24,000 nucleotides of DNA from Sporomusa sp. KB1 (GTDB lineage Bacteria; Bacillota; Negativicutes; Sporomusales; Sporomusaceae): assembly GCF_007830295.1 (NCBI RefSeq), contig NZ_VLKC01000002.1, forward strand, positions 3,889,546 to 3,913,545, given 5' to 3'. This document shows positions 2,222 to 24,000 of this stretch, piece by piece. Below the pieces are notes generated by a model. That model was not told where the DNA came from. It saw nothing but the letters and a program-made list of their open reading frames with translations, and ran no database searches. Each line of letters opens with the position of its first letter. The stretch's first letter is position 1. Position numbers and translations under genes: made by a program.

Positions 2222-2233
2222 GGAGGGAGCAAG

Positions 2234-3337: not shown

Positions 3338-3354
3338 ATGTAGGGGGCAAGGTT

Positions 3355-6001: not shown

Positions 6002-6068
6002 TTAGCTAGAGATTAGATTATATTAGAGAAGAGTAAAGGGTGATTGTACTTTTCTGGGAGGGAAGACG

Positions 6069-7313: not shown

Positions 7314-7335
7314 GGGAGATAAAGGGGGACTTTTT

Positions 7336-8268: not shown

Positions 8269-8275
8269 AAAAATT

Positions 8276-8301
8276 GGGCAGTATTTACTGCTCATTTTTT
8301 T
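8276..8301 (+). terminator. Rho-independent terminator-like hairpin after ddl
   Basis: GGGCAGT-ATTT-ACTGCTC forms a 7-bp stem including one G-T pair, followed by ATTTTTTTATTT. Confidence 0.55.
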
Positions 8302-8362
8302 ATTTATTTAGTGGACAATACGTTGTATAATTACTGCAGAAGATGTCTACAGGAGTGATTGT

Positions 8363-9109
8363 ATGCAGACCGCAGAACGCTTGAAAGCAGCTAGAAAGCG
8401 GCGCGCTTCTATATTGGCGTTGTGGCTGGCGGCGCTGATAGTATTAATAGCTATTTTTTTATTTATTAATTCTCCCTATTTTATTGTTGGGACAGTAGTG
8501 GTTGAGGGCAATAAATATGTAACTGTTGAAGAAGTGCTGCGAATAGCTGGAGTTCCAGAAAAAATAAATATCTTTAGACTAAAACCTGCAGAAATTAAAG
8601 AGCGGTTGACTAGTGATCTGCGTGTGGATGAGGTTAAGGTTGAGAGAAATTTTCCGGCTACGATTACTATTCATATCGAGGAACGCCAGCCGTTGGCTTT
8701 TGTTGCCAGTCAGTATGGTTTTGTAGAAATTGACCGGCAAGGTATAGTAATGGTTGCATTTAAAAACCTAAAGCAGGTAAAAGTGCCTGTTATTACTGGT
8801 GTTCGGTTGGGAAATGTTTATGTTGGCGATCAGATAAATAATCCGGGGCTTGCTAATGTTTTAACCTATTTATCCGAACTGGATGAAGGAGCATTAAACC
8901 AATTATCAGAAGTAAACATTAAATCACCGGATGAGCTTGTTGTTTACACTACAAATTCAGTTTGCATTCGGATTGGAGATAATCAGCGTCTCATAGAAAA
9001 AGCTAAGCTTACAGCTGAAATTTTACAGGAAATAGCTGCAAAAAAAATGGCTGTCGAGTATGTCGATCTAAACTATACCTCCCCAATTATTAAAATACGT
9101 AATAAATAG
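8363..9109 (+). CDS. ftsQ: Cell division protein FtsQ/DivIB (POTRA domain)
   Basis: RBS AGGAG. N-terminal basic region plus a single TM segment (ILALWLAALIVLIAIFLFI). A POTRA-like segment (VVEGNKYVTVEEVL...) follows. Conserved position upstream of ftsA. Confidence 0.85.
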   Translation: MQTAERLKAARKRRASILALWLAALIVLIAIFLFINSPYFIVGTVVVEGNKYVTVEEVLRIAGVPEKINIFRLKPAEIKERLTSDLRVDEVKVERNFPATITIHIEERQPLAFVASQYGFVEIDRQGIVMVAFKNLKQVKVPVITGVRLGNVYVGDQINNPGLANVLTYLSELDEGALNQLSEVNIKSPDELVVYTTNSVCIRIGDNQRLIEKAKLTAEILQEIAAKKMAVEYVDLNYTSPIIKIRNK

Positions 9110-9136
9110 GGTTCAATTTTGAAAGGAGACGATATT

Positions 9137-9829
9137 TTGTTACCCATCAAGCAAGGGCAGCTTGCCATTGCCCTGGTCTGCGTAGTATTGGGCATTATGC
9201 TGGCGGTGCAATTCCGTACTACGCAAGACATTAAGTCAAGTATTCCCTATCAAAGGGTTGAGGACTTATCCCAACGGCTAAGTCAGACCGAAAAGGAGCG
9301 GGACGCGCTAGTTAATCAAGTTCAAGAATTAAAGCGTACTTCAGGCGCTGAAGCCGCGTCTAAGGAATTTGAGAGGATAAAGATGGGGGCCGGTGTAGTA
9401 GCTGTCGAAGGACCTGGTATTATTGTAACAATTGATGATAGTAAGCGGCCATCTAAGCCGGGGGAAAACCCTAATTTGTATCTGATTCACGATGATGATA
9501 TCCTTAAAGTGATTAATGAATTGTGGGCAGCAGGTGCGGAAGCTATGTCGATTAACGAACAACGGCTTATTGCCAGTTCCGAAATTCGTTGTGCCGGGCC
9601 AACGTTATCAGTCAATAATTCGCGCTATTCACCACCCTATGAAGTTCGCGTTATTGGTGAGCCAACAACATTAGAGAATGCACTAAAAATGCGTGGCGGT
9701 GTGATTGAAACCTTACAGTTTTGGGGTATTCAGGTAACAATCAAAACGCAAGAAGTAGTAAAAGTTCCGGCATTTAAGGGCACTTTTCGGTTTGAACTCG
9801 CCAAGCCGGCACAGGAAGGTGGTCTTTAG
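9137..9829 (+). CDS. DUF881-family division/sporulation-associated membrane protein (YlxW/YlxX-like)
   Basis: One N-terminal TM segment, a short coiled-coil stretch and a conserved C-terminal domain, in the same position as B. subtilis ylxW/ylxX between divIB and sbp. The TTG at 9137 has AGGAG 8 nt upstream. The ORF-track start at 9119 lacks an RBS. Confidence 0.72.
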   Translation: MLPIKQGQLAIALVCVVLGIMLAVQFRTTQDIKSSIPYQRVEDLSQRLSQTEKERDALVNQVQELKRTSGAEAASKEFERIKMGAGVVAVEGPGIIVTIDDSKRPSKPGENPNLYLIHDDDILKVINELWAAGAEAMSINEQRLIASSEIRCAGPTLSVNNSRYSPPYEVRVIGEPTTLENALKMRGGVIETLQFWGIQVTIKTQEVVKVPAFKGTFRFELAKPAQEGGL

Positions 9830-9830
9830 T

Positions 9831-10160
9831 ATGGCATTGCCGATTGCCGGACTTATTATAGGTGTACTTATAGGTATATCTTTTCCGATTACAGTGCCTG
9901 TAGAATATGCTAAGTTTCTGTCAGTGGCGTTGCTGGCATCGCTTGATTCTGTGTTTGGTGGACTAAGAGCAGGCAGTGAAGAAAAATTTGACAATACGAT
10001 ATTTATCACCGGCTTTTTTACAAATGCTTTGTTGGCCGCAGGCTTGGTGTATATTGGCGACCGTCTGGGAATTGACTTATATTATGTTGCTCTATTGGCG
10101 TTTGGCTTACGGATATTTCAAAATCTAGCAATCATTCGTCGTTATTTTTTAAAAAAATAA
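9831..10160 (+). CDS. sbp: Small basic protein Sbp (DUF1290)
   Basis: From the ATG at 9831 the product MALPIAGLIIGVLIG...SLDSVFGGLRA...FGLRIFQNLAIIRR aligns by eye along its length with B. subtilis Sbp. The ORF-track start at 9792 would overlap the upstream gene and adds non-conserved residues. Confidence 0.85.
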   Translation: MALPIAGLIIGVLIGISFPITVPVEYAKFLSVALLASLDSVFGGLRAGSEEKFDNTIFITGFFTNALLAAGLVYIGDRLGIDLYYVALLAFGLRIFQNLAIIRRYFLKK

Positions 10161-10165
10161 TAAAA

Positions 10166-10217
10166 AAGCTTCAAAGTCATCCTAGCATCGTTTTGGCTTT
10201 GAAGCTTTCTTTATGTT
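10166..10217 (+). terminator. Hairpin terminator after sbp
   Basis: Perfect 11-bp stem AAGCTTCAAAG (10166-10176) / CTTTGAAGCTT (10197-10207) with a 20-nt loop, followed by TCTTTATGTTT. Confidence 0.6.
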
Positions 10218-10320
10218 TAAATGTAAAATAAATATAGATTTTTCGGTTTAAAAAAAGGGAAAATGGCACTTTTGTTGAAACTATTCTTGAAGAAACATAA
10301 TACTGTGCTGCGAGGGAGTT

Positions 10321-11517
10321 ATGAATAAAAAAAATATATTAGCTATTGATGTTGGCACAGGTATGATCAAAGTGTTTGTTGGCAGAATGCTAGCTGATGG
10401 CAGTGTGGACATTTTAGGTAGTGGTGCTGCTCCAACAGTCGGCTACGATAGAGGAGTTATCACGGACAGTAACGCTTTGACTCATTCTATAAGACAGGCA
10501 GTAGATTGTGTTCTTATGGCAGCTGACAGCCAGGAGACAGGTTGTGTATACTTAGGTATTAGCGGTTCATCACTTGTTATGCAAAATAGTATTGGTAGTA
10601 TTGCCCCAATAACTTCAGGAACTGTGACACGTGAAGATGTTGAACGCGCCTGTAAAGCAGCAGCCTTTGCCGTTGCCGATACTAATTATGAAATTTTACA
10701 TGTGTTTTCAACCAGGGAATCTGTCGTCAAACCAGGCGCCGCCCTTGAGGTAGAAGCTCACATAATATCGGCGCCGAAGGTAATTGTGCAAGGACTAACC
10801 CAGGCGCTTGCCGAAACTGGGCTTAACCTGAATGGCATTGTTGCTAATGGTATTGTGGCTGCAGAAACGTTGAGGAAAGAGTTGCCTGATGAGCGTAATA
10901 ACTTTATTTTTATGGACATTGGGGCAGGTACGGCCGATGTTGTTATTTATGTTGGTGGTAAGCTTTGCGCTTCAGCCTCGTTACCCTTGGGCGGTGATTA
11001 TATAACCAATGATTTGATGCAGGGATTGAGTGTTAACCGAGTCCATGCTGAAGAAATTAAGCGATATTATTCCAGGTTGTCTCCTGATTTGCATAATCAA
11101 GGAGTGGTTCTGGACTGTAATGATTACGGAACTACAGATAAGCATATTTCTTTTGATTTTTTATATGATATTATTGAAAGTAGAGTAGATGAAATTGTTG
11201 GTTTGCTGTATGATTCGGTTAAACCGCTTCTGGACAAGCATCTAACTGTAAATGGACAAACTTTGGAGTGTATTTATTTGACGGGTGGCTCAGGGACAAT
11301 GCCCAGTATGGGCGCTTGCATAGCCAAAGTGTTTCAGATACATACCGAAACGATTAAGCCAGCGCAATTGGCTGGTGAATATGCGCATGCAACTAATACT
11401 GTGTGTTATGGCATTATAAGCCATGGAGCCAAAATTGCAACGAGTGAGCCAGTTGCAGAAGGCTACAGTGCTTGGAATGCTTTGATCCGTAAGGCTAAAA
11501 AATTATTGAAAATTTGA
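10321..11517 (+). CDS. ftsA: Cell division protein FtsA (actin-like ATPase)
   Basis: Actin-fold phosphate motifs AIDVGTGMIKV, DIGAGTADV and LTGGSGTMP. The C-terminal amphipathic helix WNALIRKAKKLLKI is typical of the FtsA membrane-targeting sequence. The gene sits immediately upstream of ftsZ. Confidence 0.9.
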   Translation: MNKKNILAIDVGTGMIKVFVGRMLADGSVDILGSGAAPTVGYDRGVITDSNALTHSIRQAVDCVLMAADSQETGCVYLGISGSSLVMQNSIGSIAPITSGTVTREDVERACKAAAFAVADTNYEILHVFSTRESVVKPGAALEVEAHIISAPKVIVQGLTQALAETGLNLNGIVANGIVAAETLRKELPDERNNFIFMDIGAGTADVVIYVGGKLCASASLPLGGDYITNDLMQGLSVNRVHAEEIKRYYSRLSPDLHNQGVVLDCNDYGTTDKHISFDFLYDIIESRVDEIVGLLYDSVKPLLDKHLTVNGQTLECIYLTGGSGTMPSMGACIAKVFQIHTETIKPAQLAGEYAHATNTVCYGIISHGAKIATSEPVAEGYSAWNALIRKAKKLLKI

Positions 11518-11544
11518 TAGATGGTAAGGGAGGAAAACTTAGTA

Positions 11545-12591
11545 ATGTTGGAATTTGACATGGACTTGGACCAGTTTGCTTCAATAAAAGTTATTGGTGT
11601 GGGCGGTGGTGGCAATAATGCCGTCAATCGAATGATTGGCGCTGGCTTGCAGGGCGTAGAATTTATCACTATAAATACAGATGCGCAGGCATTGATTGGT
11701 TCTGAAGCTACTTATCGTATTCAGATTGGTGAGAAACTAACCAAAGGCTTGGGAGCGGGGGCTAATCCGGATATTGGTGAGAAGGCCGCTCAAGAAAGCC
11801 GAGATGACATCATTAAGGTTCTTAAAGGATCGGACATGGTGTTTATTACAGCTGGTATGGGTGGCGGTACTGGCACCGGGGCGGCACCGATAGTAGCTGA
11901 GTGTGCCCGGGAAGTGGGAGCTTTAACGGTTGGGGTTGTTACTAAGCCTTTTTCTTTTGAGGGACGTAAGCGTCAGCTCCAAGCTGAACGGGGAATTGCC
12001 AAGCTTAAGGAAAAAGTAGATACGTTGATTACTATCCCTAATGATCGATTGTTACAGGTTGTGGATAAACGCACTCCGATCATGGAAGCATTCAAGATTG
12101 TTGATGATGTACTCCGTCAAGGTGTGCAAGGGATTTCTGATCTCATTGCTGTGCCGGCACTAATAAATCTTGACTTCGCCGATGTTAAGACTATTATGAG
12201 CGATGCTGGTTCAGCACTTATGGGTATTGGTTTTGGTACAGGGGATAACCGCGCAATTACGGCTGTTGAAGCGGCGATTAAGAGTCCGCTCTTAGAAATG
12301 TCAATTGACGGTGCTAAAGGTGTATTACTTAATTTTACGGGCGGTCCTAATACTACATTGTTTGAAGTTAATGAGGCTGCTGATATTATTGCTAAAGCGG
12401 CTGATCCTGAAGCTACGATTATATTTGGCGCGACCATTGATGAAGCGTTTGAAGACCAAGTTCGGGTAACTGTCATTGCTACTGGCTTTGATCCCCTGCC
12501 TTTGAAGGTAAGTGCAGGTAAAAGCGAAACTACGGTTATTGAACCGTTTAAAGGGCGGGATTTAGATATTCCGGCTTGGATGCGGCGGTAG
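11545..12591 (+). CDS. ftsZ: Cell division GTPase FtsZ
   Basis: Tubulin signature [11 protein letters not shown]-terminal [17 protein letters not shown], and the conserved C-terminal peptide [11 protein letters not shown] prefer the ATG at 11545 (RBS AGGGAGG upstream) to the in-frame ATG at 11521. Confidence 0.97.
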
Positions 12592-12619
12592 ATAATATAG
12601 TAAATAAGGAATGTAACAT

Positions 12620-12650
12620 AAAACCCGGCTCATTACGAGCCGGGTTTTAT
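12620..12650 (+). terminator. Rho-independent terminator after ftsZ
   Basis: AAAACCCGGCTC-ATTAC-GAGCCGGGTTTT is a perfect GC-rich stem followed by a T run. Confidence 0.85.
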
Positions 12651-12682
12651 GTCTATTTTTGGAATCAATAAAATGGCAGGAA

Positions 12683-12715
12683 TTTACATTTTATTGAAGG
12701 AAAACTTAGTATAAT
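12683..12715 (+). promoter_or_regulatory. Candidate spoIIG-type promoter with an over-long spacer
   Basis: TTTACA (12683-12688), a 21-nt spacer, then TATAAT (12710-12715), about 85 nt upstream of the spoIIGA GTG. No consensus 0A box (TGTCGAA) was seen. Confidence 0.35.
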
Positions 12716-12799
12716 TAGAATAACAATTTGATTCCAAGCATATAGTCTTATGTGTAAAATGTTTTCATGTATGAAATTTCATCCAAGAAGGTATAGCCT

Positions 12800-13732
12800 G
12801 TGAGCATTTATGCTGATGTGGTATTGTTAATCAATTTTATTATGAATAGCATTATTTTAGTAATAACAGCTTATGCTGCAGGCATTTCTTTTTGTTGGAA
12901 ACGCTTGTTAATGACGGCTGTAGCGGGAGGCGTATATACATTAGTCGGTATCTTTCCGGAGATGGCTATATTTTATAGTATACCCGGAAAGTTTTTAGCG
13001 TCTGTGGTGATTATTTTATTGGCTTTTGGCTATAGGTCAGTAAAGCTGACAGTAACACTTACCGGCATTTTTTTTATAGTATCTTTTATTTTGGGTGGGG
13101 CTTTGTTGGGCTGGATGTATTTTATTCAAACGGAAGCGCCTTATAGAGCTGGTACTACTATTAAACTCTCCTGGGGCAATTTAATGGCAGGCAGTGTCTT
13201 AGCCATAGTTCTCATCCTGCTGGTTGTCAAAAGACTGCTGGCCAGAATGTACCGGTATAAGACTTTTTATCAGGCAAGAATAGAATATGCCGGGCAGTTG
13301 CAGGAGATTACAGGTATGATGGATACTGGCAATGGCCTCTATTCGTTGCTGGGGCGTAAACCGGTAGTTCTGCTTTCTCTGCAATCGGCACTTCAACTAC
13401 TGGGCCGGCAGGTTGCAGCATTCTTAACAGCTAATCGGCCGGATTCCTGGTTAGCTAATCTTGACAAATGTCAGGATTCAGCTTGGCTAGCCAGGGTGGA
13501 GGTTATTCCCTGCCAGTCTGTTGGGGGCCGCAATATGTTGCTTGGTTTTAGACCGGATAGTATTACCGTGATGAGCAATGTGGGCTCGTACTATACTTCA
13601 GAAGTACTTATCGGCATTTACGATGGTACCTTTGCTGATGGTAGCAATTGTCAGGCGCTTTTACATCCGGCGCTTATAACAGAAATTAATAGGACCAAGG
13701 GGGAAAGTACATGCGAATTACCTGGCCAATAA
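12800..13732 (+). CDS. spoIIGA: Sigma-E processing aspartic peptidase SpoIIGA
   Basis: GTG start with RBS AGAAGG. N-terminus [16 protein letters not shown] resembles B. subtilis SpoIIGA, and about five TM segments follow. The catalytic DTGN motif is present ([11 protein letters not shown]). The gene lies directly upstream of sigE. Confidence 0.9.
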
Positions 13733-14448
13733 TTAAATTGTATATAAGGCTAAGGATCATATCACTACTTCAGGCGATTGGCTGGCTGAAGCCTGATGAA
13801 GTATTTTATGTTGGTAGCGCGGAAATTTTACCGCCACCTTTATCAAGTGATGAAGAGATATTTTTGCTTAACCGTTTGCAAAAAGGGGATAAATCTGTCA
13901 GAAGTGTATTCATTGAGCGTAACCTCCGGCTTGTCGTCTACATTGCCCGCAAATTTGAAAATACCGGCGTAAGTGTCGAAGATTTAGTTAGCATCGGTAC
14001 GATTGGCCTAATTAAAGCAGTAAACACGTTTGATCCCGTCAAAAAGATTAAACTAGCCACATATGCTTCACGATGTATCGAAAATGAAATTTTAATGTAT
14101 TTACGCCGTAACAGTAAAACCCGGGCCGAAGTATCCTTTGACGAACCATTAAATATTGATTGGGATGGTAATGAGCTGTTGCTTTCTGATGTGTTAGGTA
14201 CAGATAATGATATTATTTATAAGTCAGTGGAGGAAGAGGTTGATAAAACCCTGTTATACACAGCCATGAGCAAGTTGTCAGGGCGGGAACGAAGAATTAT
14301 GGAACTACGGTTTGGCCTTAATGATGACGGTAATGAACGTACACAAAAAGAAGTAGCTGATATGCTGGGGATATCTCAGTCGTACATATCAAGGCTGGAA
14401 AAGAGAATAATAAAGAGGCTGCGTAAAGAGATTAGTCGCATGGAATGA
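13711..14448 (+). CDS. sigE: RNA polymerase sporulation sigma factor pro-sigma-E
   Basis: Near-identical blocks to B. subtilis SigE: [64 protein letters not shown] and [21 protein letters not shown]. An N-terminal pro-sequence is present. RBS GGGGGA. The start overlaps the spoIIGA end by 22 nt. Confidence 0.96.
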
Positions 14449-14470
14449 AGTCTTGCGGCTCTTTTTTTTT
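14434..14470 (+). terminator. Possible terminator or attenuator after sigE
   Basis: AGTCGCA (14434-14440) pairs with TGCGGCT (14454-14460), including one G-U pair, across a 13-nt loop. The run CTTTTTTTTT follows. The stem overlaps the sigE stop codon. Confidence 0.5.
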
Positions 14471-14512
14471 GCCTATTTTTGAAAAATGTCAGGCATCTCT
14501 TTGGCAGCAGAA

Positions 14513-14542
14513 GTATAAAACCAGCAGGCCATGGCAATAATG
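14513..14542 (+). promoter_or_regulatory. Forespore sigma-F/sigma-G-type promoter upstream of sigG
   Basis: GTATA (14513-14517), a 15-nt spacer, then GGCAATAATG (14533-14542). This fits the published sigma-F consensus GywTA-N15-GgnrAnAnTw at all but the last position. It lies about 58 nt upstream of the sigG ATG. Confidence 0.6.
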
Positions 14543-14599
14543 CTTGTGTAGGGTAGTTAAGTTGTTTTAGTAGCTTAGAAAAACTGGGGAGGGAATAAC

Positions 14600-15373
14600 A
14601 TGATTGTCAACAAAGTCGAAATATGTGGTGTAAATACAGCGAAGCTCCCGGTGCTTTCTGCCACTAAAATGCGTGAGTTGTTTGAGGTAATGCAGGGGGG
14701 CGAAAAAGGCGCCCGGGAACAGCTGATTTATAGCAATCTCCGATTAGTGCTTAGTGTAATTCAACGGTTTAATAATCGGGGAGAATATGTCGATGACTTA
14801 TTTCAGGTTGGCTGCATTGGCTTAATGAAAGCTATTGATAACTTTGATCTGGCACAGAATGTAAAGTTTTCTACCTATGCAGTACCGATGATTATTGGAG
14901 AAATCCGGCGCTATTTAAGAGATAACAACCCCATAAGGGTAAGCCGTTCAATGCGGGATGTTGCCTATAAAGCGCTGCAAGTACGGGATTCGTTAGTCAG
15001 TCGGTTTTCACGGGAGCCGTCAATTAATGAGATTGCTGATGAACTTAAGGTGCCAAGAGAAGAAATAATATTTGCCCTGGACGCAATCCAAGAGCCTATA
15101 TCCTTATTTGAACCTATTTATCATGATGGCGGTGATCCCATTTTTGTAATGGATCAAATCAGTGATGATAAACATTTAGATTTAAGTTGGCTTGAGGGAG
15201 TGGCAATTAAAGAAGCTCTGCGCAAACTGAGTGACCGCGAGAAACATATACTTACTCTTAGGTTCTTTGAGGGTAAAACGCAGATGGAAGTTGCAGATGA
15301 AATTGGTATTTCCCAGGCACAAGTGTCGCGGTTGGAAAAGGCCGCATTAGGCCATATGCGCAAATACATATAG
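14600..15373 (+). CDS. sigG: RNA polymerase sporulation sigma factor sigma-G
   Basis: Long near-identical blocks to B. subtilis SigG: NKVEICGV, NLRLVLSVIQRFNNRGEYVDDLFQVGCIGLMK, VKFSTYAVPMIIGEIRRYLRDNNPIRVSRS and KTQMEVADEIGISQAQVSRLEKAA. Confidence 0.96.
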   Translation: MIVNKVEICGVNTAKLPVLSATKMRELFEVMQGGEKGAREQLIYSNLRLVLSVIQRFNNRGEYVDDLFQVGCIGLMKAIDNFDLAQNVKFSTYAVPMIIGEIRRYLRDNNPIRVSRSMRDVAYKALQVRDSLVSRFSREPSINEIADELKVPREEIIFALDAIQEPISLFEPIYHDGGDPIFVMDQISDDKHLDLSWLEGVAIKEALRKLSDREKHILTLRFFEGKTQMEVADEIGISQAQVSRLEKAALGHMRKYI

Positions 15374-15402
15374 AGTTTATGATTTACTTGGGAGGCAGTG
15401 TA

Positions 15403-16011
15403 ATGGAGAGAAGTTTACCTTTGTGGAGTAAGCGAATGTTAATAATTCTAGTAGTTTGTTTTATTGCTGGTGGCTGGAGTGTACTTCTTTATCAGCAAAA
15501 ACACGGGGTACCAGTGACACCCAATAGCAGTGATTATGTTAGATTGCATATTTTGGCTAATAGCGATAGCGTACAAGACCAACAGCTTAAACTAAAGGTT
15601 CGCGATGCAGTAATTGCCTATCTAACCCCATATGTCAAAGATGTGACTGATGCCCAAGCAGCTAAAAACATTATAGCTAACCGCCAAGAGGAACTTGTTC
15701 TGGTAGCCAAAAACACGCTAGCCGAAAACGGCGTTGATTATCCTGTAGCTATCCAAATCGGTAGTTTTGAGTTTCCGGTGCGTTCCTACGGCAGCTTAGT
15801 GTTGCCTGCGGGAGAGTATCAGGCTGTTCGCATTCTCCTGGGAGAGGCTGCTGGGCAAAATTGGTGGTGCGTATTATTTCCACCCCTATGTTTTATTGAC
15901 GGTACTAACACGACCTTAGCCCCAGTTACTTCTTCAAAAGAATATACTCAGCAGGAAGATGGCGATAGACCTTTAAAAATTTGCTGGAAGCTGGCTGAGA
16001 TTTTTAATTAA
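15403..16011 (+). CDS. spoIIR: Stage II sporulation protein R (SpoIIR), the forespore signal that activates SpoIIGA
   Basis: Conserved SpoIIR blocks VRLHILANSDSVQDQQLKLKVRDAV and NWWCVLFPPLCF, with an N-terminal signal/TM segment. I prefer the ATG at 15403 (RBS GGGAGG 7 nt upstream) to the ORF-track ATG at 15379. Confidence 0.9.
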   Translation: MERSLPLWSKRMLIILVVCFIAGGWSVLLYQQKHGVPVTPNSSDYVRLHILANSDSVQDQQLKLKVRDAVIAYLTPYVKDVTDAQAAKNIIANRQEELVLVAKNTLAENGVDYPVAIQIGSFEFPVRSYGSLVLPAGEYQAVRILLGEAAGQNWWCVLFPPLCFIDGTNTTLAPVTSSKEYTQQEDGDRPLKICWKLAEIFN

Positions 16012-16151: not shown

Positions 16152-17822
16152 TTATACTTCGACAACGCGCCTGATATTGCTGTGTGCTACAACGCTTTCT
16201 TCTACTGAATAAGTAGGAATTGCAGCACTGGCCATCTGTTGGATGGTAAGGGGAATGTTGGTTTTGGACAAAAACACTAACCGTTTGTCGTAATAGCGAA
16301 TTAGTTTGATCATCTTATAAAAACAGTCATGGCTGAATTTGCAGCGAACATTGGCAAAAATAATATCAGCATGGATGATAAGCGCTTCATCAAAGCCGTT
16401 TGCATCGCCGGAGAGATAAACAAAATTAGGTAGCTGGGTCTTTAACTTGGTTTGCCAATTTTCAGCACCGCCGATAACCAAGGCGTGAATGTTGCTTAAT
16501 GTGCTTAATGCTGCCTCGATATTGTAGTGTTGATTAGATGTTGCTAAATTTATAATATTATTAGAGTTTTCTATGTCTTTACTTTGTCTTCGGTGATTTT
16601 CCGCTTGCGTAAGCTTAGTTTGAAGTAGCTCAGTTTCTTTGCTTAAGGCATTCACCACGAACTTTTGTTTGAGAACCAAGGCGTTAAGCTCTTCTTCTTT
16701 TTGAGCCAGCAAATCGGTTTTGGCTGCCAAATCTGCACTCATCCTGCGAACTTCTATTTCGTAGGCTCGAAGTTGTTTTTTGAGATTATCCATTTCGGCA
16801 GATAGAAAAGGATTGTTTTGTTCAAAATAATATTTCCTCGTTTTTTTATACTCACGTATGAATTCGAGTAAACTTAAGCCGAACATTACAAACTCGGCAC
16901 ATTTTGATTCCAGATCCTCGTGGCTTTGCGTATGATTGGATCGGAATAATTCTGAGGTCATCTTTATAATATAGAGGCGACAAAGTAGCTCAACATCTCG
17001 TTCTTTAATCTTTGTCAAAATTTTTGGTGATGCCAAGGATAATCCTGTTGATGATGACAAATACGCGGTGCAGTGAGCCATTCCTTCCCAGAAATGGTCG
17101 CCGTTCCAGGGTTCAAGATAATTATAAAATACCTTTTGATATATCGCATTTTTAAGTTGACGGGCCATTTTTTTTATTGCTGGTTTATTCAGCCTGTTTT
17201 TTAATTGTTGAAAATCGCTGGTGTTATCAAGCTTGCTGGCAAGTGTTTGCACAACGAATAAAGTCTCAGGTTCTGGTATGATTGCTTTTTTGCCTAAAAC
17301 ACAGGTAATAAACATGGCGAATTTTAGGGAGGCATGAGGCGGTAAATCAATAGCTGGATACATTGCAATGAAATATTGAAGATATTGTATTGCGGCGCCA
17401 GTAAGAAGATTGTGGTATTGAACGTCTTTGTCGGATTCGGCATAATACTCTGGCTGAGCGGCTTTTGATAAATCAATTGTTTCGGCATTTTTAATATAGC
17501 CATACAGATTGCTCCAGCGTTTTGTCAGAATGCGTATTACCTGTTCGAATAAGGGAGAACAAGGGCCATCTTCCATAGCCACAAGCACCATGCCTAAGTA
17601 TTTTAAGGCATAAATTTGTCGATCAATGCCGCTGATAGTGAACAAAGGATGATTAGCATAAGAAGAATGAGAGGCTGCAGTCTGGTAACGAGTTTTATCG
17701 ATTTCATAAAGCAAGTCTATTTCTTTGTATGCTGATGATGTATCGGCAGCGAGCTGGACAAAAAGAGGGAGCGTATCAACCGGGATATTGTTGGCTACTA
17801 ATATGAAATCCGAAATCTTCAT
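16152..17822 (-). CDS. Hypothetical 556-aa protein: novel helical N-terminal region, central coiled coil, DUF2325-like C-terminal domain
   Basis: Long uninterrupted ORF with RBS GGATGGTGA upstream. Residues ~341-412 are heptad-rich (EMDNLKKQLRAYEIEVRR...ELLQTKLTQAENH). Residues ~446-530 (ALVIGGAENW...HADIIFANVRCKFSHDCFYKMIKL...LVFLSKTN) match my memory of the DUF2325 pattern (GG ... aD-hh ... sH ... k). No TM segment or signal peptide. Confidence 0.7.
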   Translation of the reverse strand: MKISDFILVANNIPVDTLPLFVQLAADTSSAYKEIDLLYEIDKTRYQTAASHSSYANHPLFTISGIDRQIYALKYLGMVLVAMEDGPCSPLFEQVIRILTKRWSNLYGYIKNAETIDLSKAAQPEYYAESDKDVQYHNLLTGAAIQYLQYFIAMYPAIDLPPHASLKFAMFITCVLGKKAIIPEPETLFVVQTLASKLDNTSDFQQLKNRLNKPAIKKMARQLKNAIYQKVFYNYLEPWNGDHFWEGMAHCTAYLSSSTGLSLASPKILTKIKERDVELLCRLYIIKMTSELFRSNHTQSHEDLESKCAEFVMFGLSLLEFIREYKKTRKYYFEQNNPFLSAEMDNLKKQLRAYEIEVRRMSADLAAKTDLLAQKEEELNALVLKQKFVVNALSKETELLQTKLTQAENHRRQSKDIENSNNIINLATSNQHYNIEAALSTLSNIHALVIGGAENWQTKLKTQLPNFVYLSGDANGFDEALIIHADIIFANVRCKFSHDCFYKMIKLIRYYDKRLVFLSKTNIPLTIQQMASAAIPTYSVEESVVAHSNIRRVVEV

Positions 17823-17870: not shown

Positions 17871-18230
17871 TTACACTACTTTTTTGGTAATACATTCGAC
17901 ACTTTCTATTTGGTAAGACGCGGCAATAGTCGTGCTTCGTTCGCCTTTGGCTGTCTGTATTGCCGCTTTGACTGCAAGCAGAGACTCCGTAATATTTTTT
18001 AGGTTGTTTGTTAACGTTACAAGGATATTAACATAGGTATCAAATGTATAGTCGTTCTTAGACAAGGTAGCTTCTTGAATGGCTTTATGGGTATCTACAA
18101 GGAGTTCTTGAAAGGCATGTTCAGAGTATTGTAAGTCAGTTAGTGTATAGCAACCGGGTTCATTGTCGGTTAGTAACATAATCTTCCCATTGGTTAAAAC
18201 ATCACTGTGATCATTGATTCGTGAATACAT
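17871..18230 (-). CDS. Hypothetical 119-aa protein, first gene of the operon with the 556-aa gene
   Basis: ORF with a strong RBS (AGGGAGGAAAAATT-ATG). It lies 48 nt upstream of the 556-aa gene on the same strand. No recognisable motif, TM segment or signal peptide. Confidence 0.6.
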   Translation of the reverse strand: MYSRINDHSDVLTNGKIMLLTDNEPGCYTLTDLQYSEHAFQELLVDTHKAIQEATLSKNDYTFDTYVNILVTLTNNLKNITESLLAVKAAIQTAKGERSTTIAASYQIESVECITKKVV

Positions 18231-18326: not shown

Positions 18327-18392
18327 ATAAATTCAAGCGAACGTAATAAAAGAACATAAAACAAGTGTAAAACTTTGCACTGCTTGAAATAT

Positions 18393-18487
18393 TGCTCCTT
18401 TCCAAAAGGGAGATATAGCCGTTTTCAGCTATACCGATCGGCCGGATACCATGCCACGAAAGGATTAGGTAAATCGGCTAAGGAGCA
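18393..18487 (-). promoter_or_regulatory. Candidate riboswitch aptamer; class unproven, some resemblance to the Moco/Tuco RNA motif
   Basis: On the minus strand an 8-bp closing helix, UGCUCCUU (18487-18480) / AAGGAGCA (18400-18393), encloses about 80 nt. Internal hairpins are GCCG..UACC / GGUA..CGGC (18478-18441) and UAUAGC-UGAAAACG-GCUAUA (18433-18414). The 3' strand also pairs with the terminator's 5' arm. Confidence 0.5.
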
Positions 18488-18567
18488 GACTATCTGATTA
18501 TGAAACTTTAACAAAGAGGTATTCGATAACGAAAACTAACATAAACAAACATGAATAATTAATTACT

Positions 18568-18753: not shown

Positions 18754-19743
18754 ATGAATCGTAATTTAATGAAACTAATGGGTCTTTTTCTCTGCGTAGT
18801 ACTCATTGGACTGGGGCAACAAAGCAGTTTTGCCGAGGAGAGCCCAAACCACCCAATTACGGAGGTTATTGTCTTTCATGCTGGCAGTTTAAGCGGACCA
18901 TTCCAGAAAGCGGCCGAAGCTTATGAAAAATCTCATCCAGATATCAAAATCACTTTAGAAGGAAGTGGCAGCCGGGAAGCCGCCCGGAAAGTAACGGAAC
19001 TGAAGAGACCATGTGACGTGGTTGCTTCTGCTGACTATGAAACTATTGATAATTTAATGATGCCTGAATATGCAAAGTTTAATATATTTTTCGCCCGTAA
19101 TAAAACAGTTGTAGCCTTTACCGACAAAAGTAAGTATGCTAATGAGATTACCAGTGATAATTGGTATGATATTTTATCAAGGCCAGATGTGCAGTATGGT
19201 CATACTGATCCGAATTTGGATCCTGGCGGCTACCGGGCAGTTCTGACATTGCAGTTAGCCGAAAAATATTATCATAAACAGGGCTTGTATCAAGCGCTGG
19301 TAAATAATTTTCATGAGTCTAACACTGTCAATGATGGAAAAAGTATCAAAGAAATGCTGAATTCAGGTCGGTTGGATTACTTCTTCTTTTATGAATCGTC
19401 AGCCAAACAAGGCGGCTATCACTATATTACCTTGCCGGTTGAACTCGATTTTTCTTCCTTGGATTATGCGAACTATTACAAGCAAGCAACACTGTCGCTT
19501 AATGGCAAAAAAACAGGCAGCACTGAACAAGTTTACGGACAACCAATAATTTATGGCCTTACTCTGGTGAATAACGCCCCACATTCCAAGGAAGCGCTGC
19601 AATTCATACACTTTCTTCTGACAGATGGACAAAAATATTTAAATGATGCAGGTTTTATTTCTATGAATCCGTTAGTTCGCACCAGGGAATTGCCTTACAT
19701 CCCGGCAGAATTAAAAGATTTAGTAAAGCCGTTCAAACAATAA
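18754..19743 (+). CDS. Periplasmic tungstate/molybdate-binding protein, WtpA/ModA superfamily (orphan; no adjacent permease or ATPase)
   Basis: RBS AAGGGGG. Sec signal peptide (MNRNLMKLMGLFLCVVLIGLGQQSSFA). VFHAGSL...GSGS...VVASADY parallels the ModA blocks VFAAASL...SSG...FISAD. The HTDPNLDPGGYR block resembles the WtpA-type oxyanion-binding motif, recalled from memory. Confidence 0.82.
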   Translation: MNRNLMKLMGLFLCVVLIGLGQQSSFAEESPNHPITEVIVFHAGSLSGPFQKAAEAYEKSHPDIKITLEGSGSREAARKVTELKRPCDVVASADYETIDNLMMPEYAKFNIFFARNKTVVAFTDKSKYANEITSDNWYDILSRPDVQYGHTDPNLDPGGYRAVLTLQLAEKYYHKQGLYQALVNNFHESNTVNDGKSIKEMLNSGRLDYFFFYESSAKQGGYHYITLPVELDFSSLDYANYYKQATLSLNGKKTGSTEQVYGQPIIYGLTLVNNAPHSKEALQFIHFLLTDGQKYLNDAGFISMNPLVRTRELPYIPAELKDLVKPFKQ

Positions 19744-19952: not shown

Positions 19953-20420
19953 TTAGCCGTTACAGGTGCAAGCGTCACCGCAAGTACAACTGTCGCCGCA
20001 TGAACAACCGTCAGTATTTGCAATCATGCTATCATTTTTTGAAATACTTACTCCCGCTGCGGAAAGCTCTTCTTGTTTCTTCAATTTTTTATTGTAGTTG
20101 TTTATCCAGCCAAACACATCGTTCAAAATCGGTATAAAACTTTGTCCGATATCTGTTAATGAGTATTCGACTTTTGGCGGTACTTCTTTGTATATTTCTC
20201 TAAATACTATTCCGTCCCGTTCAAGTTCCCGTAACTGTTGTGTAAGTATTCCTTGTGAAATATCGGGTATTTGTTTTTGAAGTTCACTAAACCTTCTCGT
20301 TCCCTCGCTTAAACGCCAAAGAATTGTGAATTTCCATTTACCTGTGACTAACCTTTGGGCAACTGTTAGTGTTGCATTAGTCACTGGACAAAGACCTCTA
20401 AGGTTTTGTGCTTTGGTCAT
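19953..20420 (-). CDS. HxlR-family (DUF24) winged-helix transcriptional regulator with a C-terminal metallothionein-like Cys-rich tail
   Basis: Core [27 protein letters not shown]...[31 protein letters not shown].....[11 protein letters not shown] is the HxlR signature. An extra ~45 aa ends in [19 protein letters not shown], with six Cys arranged as three CxC pairs. Confidence 0.85.
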
Positions 20421-20517
20421 TTCAAATTGCTTCCTTTCTCAATGGTACTATAAATAGTAGTATGTCATATAAAAGTGCCTACTTGTATTTTTATTTATTA
20501 TATTATACCATTTTAGC

Positions 20518-20571
20518 AAATATAAACAAACATAGACAATAATTATAAGTCGTTTATGTTTGTTTATATTT
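20518..20571. promoter_or_regulatory. Perfect 17-bp inverted repeat; candidate operator in the divergent hxlR-like / HMA promoter region
   Basis: AAATATAAACAAACATA (20518-20534), a 20-nt spacer, then TATGTTTGTTTATATTT (20555-20571), an exact reverse complement. The left arm overlaps the -35 region of a minus-strand TGgTATAAT extended -10 (20510-20502). The right arm overlaps the -35 region of a plus-strand TATAGT (20581-20586). Confidence 0.65.
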
Positions 20572-20611
20572 GTAGATATTTATAGTTTGGCACAGGGAGG
20601 AAGTGAAGCTA

Positions 20612-20821
20612 ATGACTCAAACCAATCAAATTATCCTGAGAATTGAAGGTATGTCATGCAGTATGTGCAAAGGTAAAGTGGAAAAAGCACTTAAAAGTAT
20701 TTCAGGAGTAATAAACGTAAGTGTTGATTTGGAAACAAAGGAAGCCATTATTGGTGGCTTGGCTAATCCTGCAGCGCTTGTTAAAGCTGTTGAAGAAATT
20801 GGATTTAAAGTTAAAAACTAA
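20612..20821 (+). CDS. Heavy-metal-associated (HMA) domain protein, CopZ-like metallochaperone
   Basis: 69 aa with a ferredoxin-like HMA pattern and metal-binding loop GMSCSMC (MxCxxC). No signal peptide. I prefer the ATG at 20612 (RBS AGGGAGG 11 nt upstream) to the GTG at 20603. Confidence 0.85.
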   Translation: MTQTNQIILRIEGMSCSMCKGKVEKALKSISGVINVSVDLETKEAIIGGLANPAALVKAVEEIGFKVKN

Positions 20822-20861
20822 TATGCTTCACCACTTAGCACTATTCAAGAGGAGGGGGAAA

Positions 20862-23138
20862 ATGGCGAAAAACTTAACATGGAAACCATTTTGCAGTGTT
20901 ACACTTGCTATTGCCATGTTTCTATATGGAGCAGGTATTGCCGGGGCGGAAAATGCAGTGTCGCAATCAGACAGCACTCAGGTGTCCGAAGGTGATAAAC
21001 AGCAAAAACAGGATCAGGCAGCTGATAAGCAAGAACAGCACGAAAATAGTGATAGTTCGATTGCGGCGACTTCAACTGCGGCCAATGTTCCATTTACTGA
21101 GGTGGAGATTACTGCGGTGGAGGTTACTGCGGACAAGCAGAATAAACTGGCTATTGGCCAGCAACCCAACGCCGAAGGGATAAATAATTATGTAGTTACG
21201 AAAAGTTCTACCGGCAGTAAATCAGACGTTGCAAATAAGGATTTGCCGCAGTCGATTACGGTGGTCGGCCAAAAAATCATGAAGGAGCAAAATAATAAAA
21301 CAGTCGCCGATGCATTAACTAATGTGGCGGGGGTAACGGTAGCCCAAGCAGTTCCTAATTATTGGTACAACACAAGTTTTAATATCCGAGGTTTTGGTAA
21401 TGGTTTTTTGTCTGACAATGTATTTGTTAATGGGTTATGGGATCCGTGTATTTCAATGTCGGGATGGGTGGGAAATCTTGACCGTATCGAGGTATTAAAA
21501 GGTCCGGCCTCTGTACTGTACGGAAATGGTACGCCTGGAGGTTCAATCAACTATGTAACAAAAAAACCGTTGTCTGAACAGGCATTTACCTTGGGCACGG
21601 AGTTCGGCTCATGGGGATCCAAATCGACTGATATTGATATGTCCATTCCGCTAACTGATGATAAAAAATGGCTGTCCCGGACTATTATTCAGAATGCTGA
21701 TAATCATTCTTTTCAAAAGGACGTTAAATTCAAACGTTTCGACGGCAGCGTAATTGTGCAAGGCCAACCCCGGCAAGATACTGTGTACACTTTTGAAGTA
21801 CAGTTTCATGATCACGATGGTCCAACTGTTGGATTGCTGCCACTTACCGGTACAATAAATTCCCCCTATAATCTAGTTCCTTACGATGGGAATTATTATA
21901 ATCCAAATATAAAATTACATTATATAGGGCGCAGTATTTCGGCACAAATCGATCACCAGTTTAATAGTATTTGGTCCATCCGTTCGGCCTTCCGATATAG
22001 CAATGAAACCACAAATTTCTATTCGCAAGGAGGGTCGACTCTGAATCTCGATAATCTTACAGTCAATCAAGTTTGGCAGCATAGACTGATGCGCACCAGC
22101 GTTTATGCGTGGGATACGGCAGCAAATGCCAAATTTACTGCTTGGGGGCTTAAACACGATTTGACATTTGGTTTTGACTGGGCCCAATTTGATCAAAAAA
22201 TCCCCTATTATTATCGGGGCAATTTACCCAGCGTTTCGTTGTACAATCCTATTTTCACCAGCTCATTACCAACGAGGATTATGAATCCAATGAATAACTA
22301 TCATTCTTGGAGCAATCGATATGGGAGCTACATATCGGACATAATGGAACTTTCGCCCAAATTTAAGGTTGCTACAGGGGCAAGCTTTACCACTTTGGAT
22401 GGTGTCAGCAGCCATGATTCTGGCAAAGATTGGCGGGTCGGGGCGACCTATGAATTAACTCCAGGAGTTACCTTATTTACCGGCTACTCCACATCCTACG
22501 AACCACAAGGCTCTAAGCTTAGTGGTACTAAAACGATTTACTTTGAACCTGAAACCGGTAATCAGATCGAGGGCGGTTTGAAGGTAGATATAAGTAATCG
22601 CGCAAGTGTTACGTTAGCAAATTACCGGATCAATCGTGAAGATATGGTCTACGCTATTCCCGGAACGAACCCGCAAGAATATGAACAAATTGGCAAGCAA
22701 ACCAGCAAAGGGTTCGAACTTGATGCTAGCTACGTACTTCGTCCAGGCTGGAATCTGCTGGTCGCTTATTCTCATTGTGACGCTCGCGTAGTAAAAGACG
22801 CTACCTATAGTTCAGGCAGCGTGCTTCCCAATGTGCCGCTTAACTCCTTTAAACTTTGGAGTACATACGAATTTCAAGAAGGGCCTTGTAAAGGGCTGGG
22901 TTTTGGCGGCGGTTTGACTCGTGTCGGCAGCCGCGCAGTCGATTATGATAATAGCTTAGGTTGGATGGATGGCTATACTACGATTGACGCCGAAATACAT
23001 TACAAAATCAAAGATTGGCGTTACTCCCTCAACCTATATAATTTGACTAATGAGAAGTATTGGGCGTTAGGCAGTTCTAGTGGTGTTTACGCGGGAACAC
23101 CTAGAAGTTATACTTTGCGCGTAGAAAAGTCATTTTAA
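20862..23138 (+). CDS. TonB-dependent outer-membrane receptor (siderophore/metallophore-receptor type)
   Basis: RBS GAGGAGGGGG then ATG at 20862. Signal peptide (...AIAMFLYGAGIAGA-ENA). Plug-domain motifs TKSSTGSKSDVANKDLPQSITVV, NVAGVTV, IRGF, IEVLKGPASVLYG and PGGSINYVTKKP. A beta-barrel-like repeat region follows, with the terminal aromatic ...YTLRVEKSF. The ORF-track start at 20721 overlaps the HMA gene and lacks an RBS. Confidence 0.9.
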   Translation: MAKNLTWKPFCSVTLAIAMFLYGAGIAGAENAVSQSDSTQVSEGDKQQKQDQAADKQEQHENSDSSIAATSTAANVPFTEVEITAVEVTADKQNKLAIGQQPNAEGINNYVVTKSSTGSKSDVANKDLPQSITVVGQKIMKEQNNKTVADALTNVAGVTVAQAVPNYWYNTSFNIRGFGNGFLSDNVFVNGLWDPCISMSGWVGNLDRIEVLKGPASVLYGNGTPGGSINYVTKKPLSEQAFTLGTEFGSWGSKSTDIDMSIPLTDDKKWLSRTIIQNADNHSFQKDVKFKRFDGSVIVQGQPRQDTVYTFEVQFHDHDGPTVGLLPLTGTINSPYNLVPYDGNYYNPNIKLHYIGRSISAQIDHQFNSIWSIRSAFRYSNETTNFYSQGGSTLNLDNLTVNQVWQHRLMRTSVYAWDTAANAKFTAWGLKHDLTFGFDWAQFDQKIPYYYRGNLPSVSLYNPIFTSSLPTRIMNPMNNYHSWSNRYGSYISDIMELSPKFKVATGASFTTLDGVSSHDSGKDWRVGATYELTPGVTLFTGYSTSYEPQGSKLSGTKTIYFEPETGNQIEGGLKVDISNRASVTLANYRINREDMVYAIPGTNPQEYEQIGKQTSKGFELDASYVLRPGWNLLVAYSHCDARVVKDATYSSGSVLPNVPLNSFKLWSTYEFQEGPCKGLGFGGGLTRVGSRAVDYDNSLGWMDGYTTIDAEIHYKIKDWRYSLNLYNLTNEKYWALGSSSGVYAGTPRSYTLRVEKSF
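21102..21131 (+). repeat. Tandem 15-bp duplication inside the receptor gene, encoding VEITA-VEVTA
   Basis: GTGGAGATTACTGCG (21102-21116) is followed directly by GTGGAGGTTACTGCG (21117-21131), with one mismatch. Confidence 0.8.
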
Positions 23139-23178: not shown

Positions 23179-24000
23179 GTGACCGCTCAATCAAAAACAT
23201 TTTATCAAGAATTGTGGCACATCGTCCGTCCCTTTTGGCGGTCGAGGGAAGGCAGGATAGCAGCGGCAATGCTGTTAGGAGTGCTAATCCTGATTATTTT
23301 TCGTCTCTATGTAAGTGTTCTGATAAATGAATGGCAAAAACTTTTCTTTAATGCCATTCATTTATTGAATGCCGCTGAGTGTATCCACCAGCTTTTCCGA
23401 TTTGCGGGCTTGTCGCTGCTGTTTTTGCCGTTGCTTGGCTGTCAGAAATATTTACGGGGGCTTGTGCAAATTCGCTGGCGGCAATGGTTATCGGAACGCT
23501 ATGCTGAGAAACTGCTGAAAAACCGGAATTATTACCGTTTACAGTATGCATCAGGCGATACTGATAATCTTGATCAGCGTATTGCTGAGGATTTGCGGAT
23601 TTTTCCCGTGGAGACCATCAACATGATTTTTGGTTTTATTGATGCGATGGGATCACTTGCGGCATTTTCTGTTATATTGTGGAATTCGCCGGGATCACCG
23701 GAGGTAGCCGGCCTGGAAATTACTGGCTTTCTATTTTGGCTGGCTTTATTCTTTTCGTTAGCCGGTACATGGGTCAATCACCTTATGGGGAAAATTCTCA
23801 GTGTTTTTAACCGGGAACAACAGAAATATGAAGCTAATTATCGGTTTTCCCTAGTCCGGCTCCGAGAAAATGCTGAGGCTATTGCCGCATACGGTGGCGA
23901 ATGCCGGGAAATGGAAGCCCTCGCTGATCGGTTTGGTAGTATCGCCGGGGTATGGCAGAATATTTTGCGCCGGAATAGGATACTGGACTGGTTTTTCAGT
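23179..24000 (+). CDS. YddA-like ABC transporter (ABC_membrane_2 / SbmA-BacA-type TMD fused to an ATPase), 3'-truncated by the window edge
   Basis: Not in the ORF track, because it starts at a GTG and has no stop within the window. GTG at 23179 has RBS GAAGGAG 10 nt upstream, and the frame stays open for 274 codons to base 24000. Blocks LINEWQKLFFNAI, IRWRQWLSERY, NYYRLQY and DNLDQRIAEDLRIF match E. coli YddA (WLNDWNNDFFNAL, IRWREWLTDYY, NYYFTQIY, DNPDQRIAEDILL), recalled from memory. Confidence 0.82.
   Translation, partial: MTAQSKTFYQELWHIVRPFWRSREGRIAAAMLLGVLILIIFRLYVSVLINEWQKLFFNAIHLLNAAECIHQLFRFAGLSLLFLPLLGCQKYLRGLVQIRWRQWLSERYAEKLLKNRNYYRLQYASGDTDNLDQRIAEDLRIFPVETINMIFGFIDAMGSLAAFSVILWNSPGSPEVAGLEITGFLFWLALFFSLAGTWVNHLMGKILSVFNREQQKYEANYRFSLVRLRENAEAIAAYGGECREMEALADRFGSIAGVWQNILRRNRILDWFFS

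Follow-up and report, generated by a model that had tools for sequence, protein, structure and literature searches.

A cysteine-rich tail on an HxlR/DUF24 regulator facing a predicted metal-acquisition operon in Sporomusa sp. KB1

A gene encoding an HxlR/DUF24-family regulator that ends in a six-cysteine tail (Cys6 tail) was identified in Sporomusa sp. KB1, in a stretch of 24,000 nucleotides (positions 3,889,546 to 3,913,545 of contig NZ_VLKC01000002.1; hereafter the window). The tail is fused to a winged-helix domain and is conserved among orthologues, the gene is linked to a divergent operon led by a gene for an HMA-domain protein, and a conserved cis box lies between the two. The regulator is probably a metal-sensing switch of a new kind. 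The tail is likely to bind a soft metal of some kind. The preferred reading, to which we give a probability of about 45%, is that the tail serves as an allosteric metal sensor of the operon circuit, by analogy with CopY and Mac1. Metal binding, the metal bound, the direction of regulation and its allosteric coupling are what we infer from these features, which are listed in Table 1.

Table 1. Features of the regulator gene, the intergenic region and the divergent operon (window coordinates)
Feature	Position	Strand	Remarks
HxlR/DUF24-family regulator gene	19953..20420	-	155 aa, stop codon included; open reading frame list and Pfam HxlR
Winged-helix core, residues 1-112	20085..20420	-	single core cysteine Cys11 (LCPV)
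Variable linker, residues 113-136	20013..20084	-	low identity; pLDDT <50 from residue 120
Cys6 tail, 19 residues 137-155	19956..20012	-	motif C-x-C-G-D-x-C-x-C-G-[DE]-x-C-x-C
Conserved box AAGTA-N17-TACT-N9-AGTA(C)	20441..20487	.	best operator candidate for the regulator
Predicted HMA-operon promoter	20483..20511	+	-35 TTGTAT 20483-20488, 17-nt spacer, -10 TACCAT 20506-20511
Predicted regulator promoter	20502..20529	-	-35 TTGTTT 20529-20524, extended -10 TGgTATAAT 20510-20502
Inverted repeat, 21-nt arms, CAAACATAAA-type units	20517..20572	+	arms 20517-20537 / 20552-20572, 95% complementary
CopZ-like HMA metallochaperone gene, 69 aa	20612..20821	+	GMSCSMC loop; Pfam HMA 6.3e-16
TonB-dependent receptor, siderophore type	20862..23138	+	plug and barrel domains; TIGR01783
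ATP-binding cassette (ABC) transporter, 5' part, fused transmembrane and ATPase domains	23179..24000	+	ABC_membrane_2/SbmA_BacA; leaves the window

The regulator and its cysteine-rich tail

The regulator gene starts with ATG and is preceded by the ribosome-binding site AAAGGA. Its product, 100% identical to protein P0001 of Sporomusa sp. KB1, matches the Pfam family HxlR (PF01638) over residues 24-112 (E 4.8e-32; 110.1 bits against a cut-off of 20.8), and the only other Pfam match is a sub-threshold one to PadR. The nearest solved structures are those of Bacillus subtilis HxlR (7BZE, E 2.6e-28), YtcD, YybR and YodB. An AlphaFold2 model built from eight relatives contains helices at residues 15-26, 28-38, 44-50, 56-68 and 96-122 and strands at residues 72-77 and 83-88; together with the nearest PDB entries, it gives a winged helix-turn-helix fold with a C-terminal dimerisation helix. 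The predicted local distance difference test score (pLDDT) is about 85-90 over residues 31-100, the helices and wing are confident for about residues 15-122, and the N-terminus (residues 1-13) is of low confidence. Cys11, which corresponds to the N-terminal sensing cysteine in helix alpha1 that is a hallmark of the family, is invariant in 48 of 48 aligned proteins, which come from the tailed, sister and outgroup clades. The protein is a genuine HxlR/DUF24-family member, as a first-pass annotation of the window had recognised, N-terminal cysteine included.

The regulators HxlR, YodB, HypR/YybR and YtcD of B. subtilis share their fold, Pfam family and conserved N-terminal cysteine with this protein, and hxlR is likewise divergent from its target operon, hxlAB. 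The characterised DUF24 regulators differ in that they sense formaldehyde, quinones or hypochlorite and have detoxification enzymes as their targets. In B. subtilis HxlR, an intrahelical methylene bridge linking Cys11 with Lys13 takes part in formaldehyde sensing (PMC7835342). The KB1 protein reads Cys11-Pro12-Val13 and lacks the lysine at +2, and Cys11 is the sole cysteine within residues 1-136, so that the second core cysteine of a YodB/HypR-type switch is also absent; what it has instead is the Cys6 tail and a predicted metal-uptake operon opposite its gene.

The tail contains six cysteines in 15 residues, arranged as CxC pairs with the spacing CxC-x3-CxC-x3-CxC. The motif is kept in all nine close full-length relatives, including that of S. 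acidovorans, at identities down to 56%, and it also occurs in a more distant S. ovata group. C139, C141, G142, D143, C145, C147, G148, C151 and C153 are invariant across eight aligned relatives. Mean pairwise identity is 81% for the core, 30% for the linker (1 of 26 columns invariant) and 79% for the motif. Each of the six cysteine codon columns contains both TGT and TGC among seven genes, and this synonymous variation indicates purifying selection on the protein. The first-pass annotation had named absence of the tail from orthologues as one observation that would undo it; all orthologues keep the tail. An origin by strain-specific frameshift or read-through is scarcely credible and was rejected, given the in-frame tail in the close relatives and in the S. 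ovata group, the synonymous variation of its codons and the finding of no cryptic or out-of-frame tail remnant downstream of tail-less genes. One correction concerns its extent: the 19 residues quoted at first correspond to 19956-20012, and the range then given (19956-20042) adds 10 residues of linker.

AlphaFold2 gives pLDDT values below 50 for residues 120-155, and the model is uninformative about the tail itself; the low values agree with a flexible linker and a tail that lacks structure when no ligand is bound. Pfam and NCBIfam scans of the tail gave no match to metallothionein families, and the isolated 31-residue linker-plus-tail segment found no Pfam match at E<=1. At locus L037 of S. 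ovata DSM 2662 (6780-7229 and 7338-7787, both on the - strand), the tailed HxlR protein of the S. ovata type has 149 residues and the tail SCHCGDYCICGDKCDC.

Such a tail is unlike the usual HxlR C-terminus, as had been remarked earlier: the C-terminal extension is free of cysteine in 188 of 263 related HxlR proteins. When 1.84 billion representatives were searched with a profile, only two clusters (50% identity) matched at full length through the tail, and the tailed proteins group as a single clade in a neighbour-joining tree built on the core domain; these two results point to a rare fusion that was acquired once and retained. The proteins of the sister clade have no tail and end directly after the last helix or in a short extension without cysteine. 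An insertion in helix alpha1 is common to the two HMA-linked clades and missing from the outgroups. The tail-less clade keeps Met18 and His73 without exception, and in the crown tailed group Leu and Phe take their places, which is a hint, and no more, of a functional shift toward the tail. By these comparisons, one HxlR subfamily is dedicated to the HMA-led operon, and one of its two clades has gained the Cys6 tail.

Another, unrelated class of HxlR tail was found in proteins P0084-P0119 and P0129 (130-147 residues). It contains four cysteines in the pattern C-N-(M/I)-D-(I/V)-C-x6-8-C-x-K-C and may be a zinc-ribbon-like or redox module. These outgroup genes are always divergent from a gene for a PNPOx_N flavoprotein (loci L133 and L135). 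At the P0004 loci L129 and L130 (8906-9817), an ordinary HxlR gene (131 residues) with a PNPOx_N partner lies directly beside the tailed HxlR gene.

The divergent operon and the intergenic region

The regulator gene is divergent from one and the same operon at six of six KB1-type tailed loci, and the other flank differs each time. The divergence noted in the first-pass annotation is thus general among these loci and fits a metal-linked switch. The operon consists of genes for the HMA protein, the receptor, the fused ABC transporter, a TrmO_N/FmdE and/or DUF364 protein, and then TonB, ExbB and ExbD. The HMA protein has no signal peptide, its M-x-C-x-x-C loop is kept in 8 of 8 orthologous loci, and its score against NCBIfam CopZ_AFE_1862 is 80 bits, just under the cut-off of 85. 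The receptor exceeds the cut-off of TIGR01783 (269.6 against 223.5 bits), and its nearest solved structures are FetA (3QLB), FoxA and FhuA. The label 'CntO' on FoxA-like PDB entries was not used as evidence for an opine-metallophore receptor, since the same sequences are also labelled FoxA. The receptor open reading frame as listed begins at a GTG within the HMA gene (window 20721-20861); the true start is likely the ATG at about 20862, which would give the signal-peptide-like N-terminus MAKNLTWKPF.... A low-complexity stretch rich in Gln, Asp and Lys lies between this N-terminus and the plug domain.

The ABC transporter matches ABC_membrane_2 (1.3e-45) and SbmA_BacA (3.7e-14) in Pfam. Its full-length orthologue is nearest to the Mycobacterium tuberculosis importer Rv1819c (6TQE, E 6.7e-88), and the ABC subfamily includes cobalamin-transporting members. 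A plug/barrel receptor, TonB-ExbB-ExbD and an inner-membrane importer, the set expected of an uptake operon, were found in one predicted transcription unit, co-transcription being read from orientation and short gaps. Because TonB-ExbBD is combined with a siderophore-type receptor and an Rv1819c-like ABC transporter, the operon is taken to be an uptake and not a detoxification system, and we infer that it serves the acquisition of a thiophilic metal or metal chelate.

A TrmO_N-FmdE fusion gene and/or a DUF364 gene was located in the operon at loci L001 (2641-3408), L129 (1846-3412) and L003 (2401-3132). DUF364 was tied by genome context to metal transport in 2010, tungstate and molybdate transporters included (PMC2954201). 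A DUF364 enzyme cyclises methylated S-adenosylmethionine (SAM) to methylazetidine-carboxylate (PMC12930334), a chemistry related to that of nicotianamine-type chelators. Because of this cyclisation chemistry and the SAM-binding TrmO_N domain, it is reasonable to suppose that the TrmO_N/FmdE and DUF364 genes may build a SAM-derived chelator. A metagenome scan with the TrmO_N-FmdE alignment, seeking distant operons under a known riboswitch or regulator, returned only three near-identical loci.

The conserved box is kept in 8 of 8 aligned intergenic regions, tailed and tail-less, and occurs once in the window (0.02 expected). Each of 15 related loci has a single copy of its core, CAAGTAC-N15-ATACT, always a short way upstream of the regulator gene, and 126 unrelated loci contain none. 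The TTGnnn-17-TAnnAT geometry of the predicted HMA promoter is kept on the HMA-sense strand in seven other loci; the window copy was read from the sequence, and a simple promoter scan of the window did not report it. The HMA-operon transcript is predicted to start at about 20518, the first base of the inverted repeat. The -10 element of the predicted regulator promoter is conserved in the intergenic alignment, the scan reported a neighbouring TATAAT, and the extended -10 overlaps the HMA -10 on the opposite strand; transcription of the regulator gene is predicted to start at about 20495. Since the conserved box contains the HMA -35 and covers about +8 to +54 of the predicted regulator transcript, it is placed for both autoregulation and control of the HMA promoter. 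The latter is predicted to proceed by occlusion of the -35 or by upstream activation, as by B. subtilis HxlR.

The first-pass annotation had put the operator at an inverted repeat (20518-20571). The repeat is real and occurs also in S. acidovorans, L129 and, more weakly, L003, where changes on both arms preserve complementarity; RNA fold z-scores of the hairpins are -6.2, -7.2, -6.6 and -3.0. It is lineage-specific, however, being missing in P0009 and in the tail-less loci, and as a family-wide operator it is unsupported, whereas the box is conserved in all loci. A shared HxlR site is a less likely role for the repeat than a hairpin at the 5' end of the mRNA or a second, lineage-specific operator. 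At its position, the tail-less loci have hairpins of unrelated sequence, one of them terminator-like. Hairpins of lineage-specific sequence are thus found at the predicted 5' end of the HMA-operon mRNA in L131 (5794-5847), in L132 (4106-4141; GC-rich, followed by a U7 run and terminator-like) and in the window, and could act in leader attenuation or mRNA stabilisation.

Metal sensing, precedents and alternatives

In the proposed mechanism, the HxlR/DUF24 regulator, devoted to the divergent operon, would bind the candidate box as a winged-helix dimer and govern both the HMA promoter and its own transcription unit. The Cys6 tail, carried on a flexible linker, would be disordered when metal-free. 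When cytosolic thiophilic metal is replete, and possibly handed over by the HMA chaperone, the tail would fold round a metal-thiolate cluster of the Cu(I)4S6 type or of the Zn/Cd/Ni-thiolate type, which may bridge two subunits or recruit Cys11. The folded tail would change DNA binding or activation, and uptake would be turned down. Because the operon is read as an importer, the expected logic is switching off in metal-replete cells and not detoxification. The tail would then be an evolutionary addition through which one clade gained or refined its metal sensing, and the tail-less sister clade would sense otherwise, probably through Cys11.

Six thiolates per subunit would suit a Cu4S6-type or Zn/Cd/Ni-thiolate cluster, as in the chemistry of metallothionein and Ace1/Mac1. 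Cu(I) is favoured by the M-S-C-x-x-C loop of the HMA protein, which lacks Asp, and by the CopZ match close to the cut-off. Ni or Zn is suggested by the presence of the tail motif on SlyD proteins, and hints of Mo or W (FmdE, and neighbouring genes in two loci) are weak.

CopY resembles the regulator in being a small winged-helix protein with C-terminal CxC pairs and a CopZ-like partner; metal-altered DNA binding belongs to CopY and would apply here by analogy. The CxCxxxxCxC peptide of CopY is enough by itself to bind Cu(I)/Zn(II) and to dimerise in response to metal (PMC12648655), its partner is a CopZ/CupA-type chaperone (PMC5646241), and its operator is the cop box TACAnnTGTA (PMC7253601). 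The two proteins differ in the DNA-binding domain (HxlR/DUF24 here, BlaI/MecI or Penicillinase_R in CopY), in the motif (six cysteines as CxC-x3-CxC-x3-CxC against four as CxC-x4-CxC), in the long variable linker of the regulator, in its candidate box, which is not a cop box, and in the genes controlled (an efflux ATPase by CopY, whereas the regulator faces an uptake operon). The regulator does not belong to the CopY family, because both the DNA-binding domain and the motif spacing differ; it may work in a CopY/Mac1-like way.

In yeast Mac1 and Ace1, cysteine-rich motifs containing CxC form polycopper-thiolate clusters, and in copper-replete cells the C-terminal repeats of Mac1 silence the genes for high-affinity copper uptake. 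The predicted logic here, with uptake genes and a C-terminal sensor, would be the same, although Mac1 and Ace1 are eukaryotic, have an unrelated DNA-binding domain and show no sequence relationship. AdcR and ZitR are MarR-family Zn(II)-dependent repressors of zinc uptake with His/Glu metal sites within the core; they are a precedent for a metal-dependent repressor of an uptake system in the MarR superfamily of winged-helix proteins, but lack a Cys tail and belong to another subfamily. The motif C-x-C-G-D-x-C-x-C-G-D-x-C-x-C is found in identical form on bacterial SlyD-like proteins (SlyD-type FKBP metallochaperones), and the cysteine spacing of the CxCxxxCxC segments of plant metallothioneins resembles that of the tail. 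These are buffers or chaperones, in contrast to a DNA-binding regulator.

A degenerate DNA pattern for the tail motif, with hits translated in frame, matched at least 120 loci in a genome collection. Among the matches listed, the motif forms a C-terminal tail on SlyD-type FKBPs, ferredoxins, histidyl-tRNA synthetase (HisRS), trigger factor and aquaporins and an N-terminal extension on GrpE; many small secreted proteins carry it, as does one ArsR-type regulator, confirmed as HTH_5. The HisRS at L090 has more than 20 tandem repeats. Other examples within L006-L125 are L008, L010, L011, L023, L028, L053 and L076. Judged by the proteins that bear it, the motif is a general appendage in anaerobes that probably binds soft metals. 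Allosteric sensing does not follow from its mere presence, since it is promiscuous on unrelated proteins, and a regulatory role has to be argued from context. SlyD-type FKBPs and the ArsR-type regulator are metal-handling contexts that would support such a role for the tail.

Several observations weigh against the tail as allosteric sensor. The motif also sits on housekeeping proteins in which sensing is unlikely (HisRS, GrpE, trigger factor and aquaporin), and may be a generic metal sponge. The host is a strict anaerobic acetogen with little obvious need for copper. All four tail-less sister regulators tested (from S. termitida, Dendrosporobacter quercicolus and two metagenomic proteins) are divergent from the same HMA-led operon, with receptor, TonB-ExbB and ABC transporter visible wherever the contig is long enough, and their loci carry the same box; the tail is therefore an add-on, dispensable for the circuit, and not the sole sensor. 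The tailed paralogue of the S. ovata type does not adjoin an HMA operon (the context covered is 8 kb, plus a 1.2-kb contig that is uninformative). It has a gene for a DUF134 putative DNA-binding protein directly upstream and a convergent gene for an M16 PreP-like peptidase downstream, and the conserved box is absent from the locus. The earlier proposal that the tail senses metal directly is thus upheld as to the conserved tail and the operon linkage, and is weakened by the tail-less relatives with the same operon and box and by the promiscuity of the motif.

The same facts can be taken to mean that the tail is an accessory metal sponge, or a dock for the HMA chaperone, without allosteric function, and that the core (Cys11 and the alpha1 insertion) senses in both clades, the tail serving just to buffer metal or concentrate it close to the regulator. 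The invariance of Cys11 and the restriction of the insertion to the two HMA-linked clades agree with this explanation, as do the shared operon and box and the scattered motif. On the other hand, the tail is conserved like the core (79% and 81%) across a drifting linker, a regulator is expected to be of low abundance and hence a poor buffer, and the loss of Met18 and His73 in the crown tailed group hints that function moved toward the tail. We regard a sponge or dock as rather unlikely.

A YodB/HypR-type switch, operated by thiol redox chemistry or electrophiles, in which the tail cysteines serve as resolving thiols and pair in disulfides with Cys11 or among themselves, appears still less probable. 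Characterised DUF24 members do sense electrophiles or oxidants through the conserved N-terminal cysteine (PMC7835342), which is present here, and in a core without a second cysteine those of the tail could be the partners. The target operon, however, encodes a metallochaperone and a TonB-dependent importer rather than reductases or detoxification enzymes, and it is the outgroup HxlR proteins with the different four-Cys tail that pair with PNPOx-type flavoproteins. The regular CxC-GD spacing, in which Gly and Asp do not vary, is the pattern of a metal cluster rather than of disulfides, as in metallothioneins and CopY. Lys13, which is required for formaldehyde sensing (PMC7835342), is absent.

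A broader version of the metal-sensing reading is doubtful. It holds that DUF24 with a poly-thiolate tail founds a new metalloregulator scaffold that works with a CopZ-like chaperone to control a hitherto undescribed chalcophile-metal acquisition pathway with a SAM-derived metallophore. The metals would be Cu, Ni, Co, Zn or thiometallate-bound Mo/W, and the hosts diderm Firmicutes under sulfidic conditions. The metallophore would be azetidine- or nicotianamine-like, made by TrmO_N-FmdE and DUF364 and taken up via the TonB-dependent receptor and the Rv1819c-type ABC transporter. If this were so, the tailed and tail-less clades would show a sensor module bolted onto an existing circuit.

Flanking genes and significance

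A gene for the tungstate-binding protein WtpA (18754..19743) adjoins the regulator gene in the window, but not in the S. acidovorans, L002 and L129 loci. Since the other flank is variable among loci, WtpA is considered a chance neighbour. WtpA and tungstate were rejected as part of the module, as the adjacency is not conserved and the nearby molybdenum cofactor (Moco) riboswitch lies on the opposite strand, with other open reading frames. This Moco/Tuco riboswitch (RF01055; window 18379-18497, - strand; 52.6 bits against a gathering score of 36) does not serve the adjoining divergent WtpA gene. The two open reading frames after it (17871-18230, 119 residues, and 16152-17822, 556 residues, both on the - strand) match neither Pfam nor NCBIfam and are an unusual cargo; the sole match of the 556-residue product is the phage family phrog_11092 (E 3.5e-24), which has no assigned function.

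At loci L003-L005 (8721-12933), genes for NifU_N, two MinD/CbiA-type ATPases with ferredoxin motifs and two Nitro_FeMo-Co (NifX-like) proteins lie beside the P0005 orthologue, and sulfur-transport genes and MoCF_biosynth are found further out. With the WtpA gene and riboswitch of the window, the FmdE domain within the operon and the genome-context link of DUF364 to tungstate and molybdate transporters (PMC2954201), such neighbours could suggest a thiometallate (MoS4/WS4, possibly with Cu) or an iron-sulfur cluster as ligand of the tail, which would link the regulator to Mo/W or iron-sulfur status. This is very improbable: the WtpA gene and the riboswitch fall away for the reasons given, the conserved module contains no molybdate-type transporter, and CxC triplets are not the usual ligand pattern of iron-sulfur clusters. 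The thiometallate idea of the first-pass annotation is accordingly weakened, as it rests mainly on the adjacent WtpA.

The remainder of the window (31-16011) contains an ordinary cell-wall and division cluster (mraY-type, murD, ftsW, murG, murC, murA, ddl, ftsQ, ftsA and ftsZ), followed by the sporulation genes spoIIGA, two sigma factor genes and spoIIR, which fits a spore-forming Negativicute. The C-x-C-G-D-x-C repeat on many housekeeping proteins of anaerobes merits a description of its own.

A literature search on HxlR/DUF24 proteins as metal sensors, and on HxlR proteins with a cysteine-rich or metallothionein tail or with links to copper or TonB-dependent uptake, found no relevant paper. 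A winged-helix regulator with a C-terminal CxC metal module is known; the HxlR scaffold and the control of uptake would be new. Bacterial metal-sensor scaffolds form a short list (ArsR, MerR, CsoR, CopY, Fur, DtxR, NikR and a few MarR/TetR cases), to which a metal-sensing DUF24/HxlR protein with a thiolate tail would, if confirmed, add another. It would also be a second, independent instance of the CopY solution, in which a winged helix is joined to C-terminal CxC pairs. The tailed and tail-less clades on the same operon constitute a natural experiment on the acquisition of sensing modules, and an unusually testable one. Acetogens need Ni, Co, W/Mo and Zn to grow, in habitats rich in sulfide, and the operon may be an unrecognised route of metal or metallophore uptake in these organisms. 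It also provides a functional handle on the DUF364 and FmdE proteins, which have long been suspected of a role in metal chelation.

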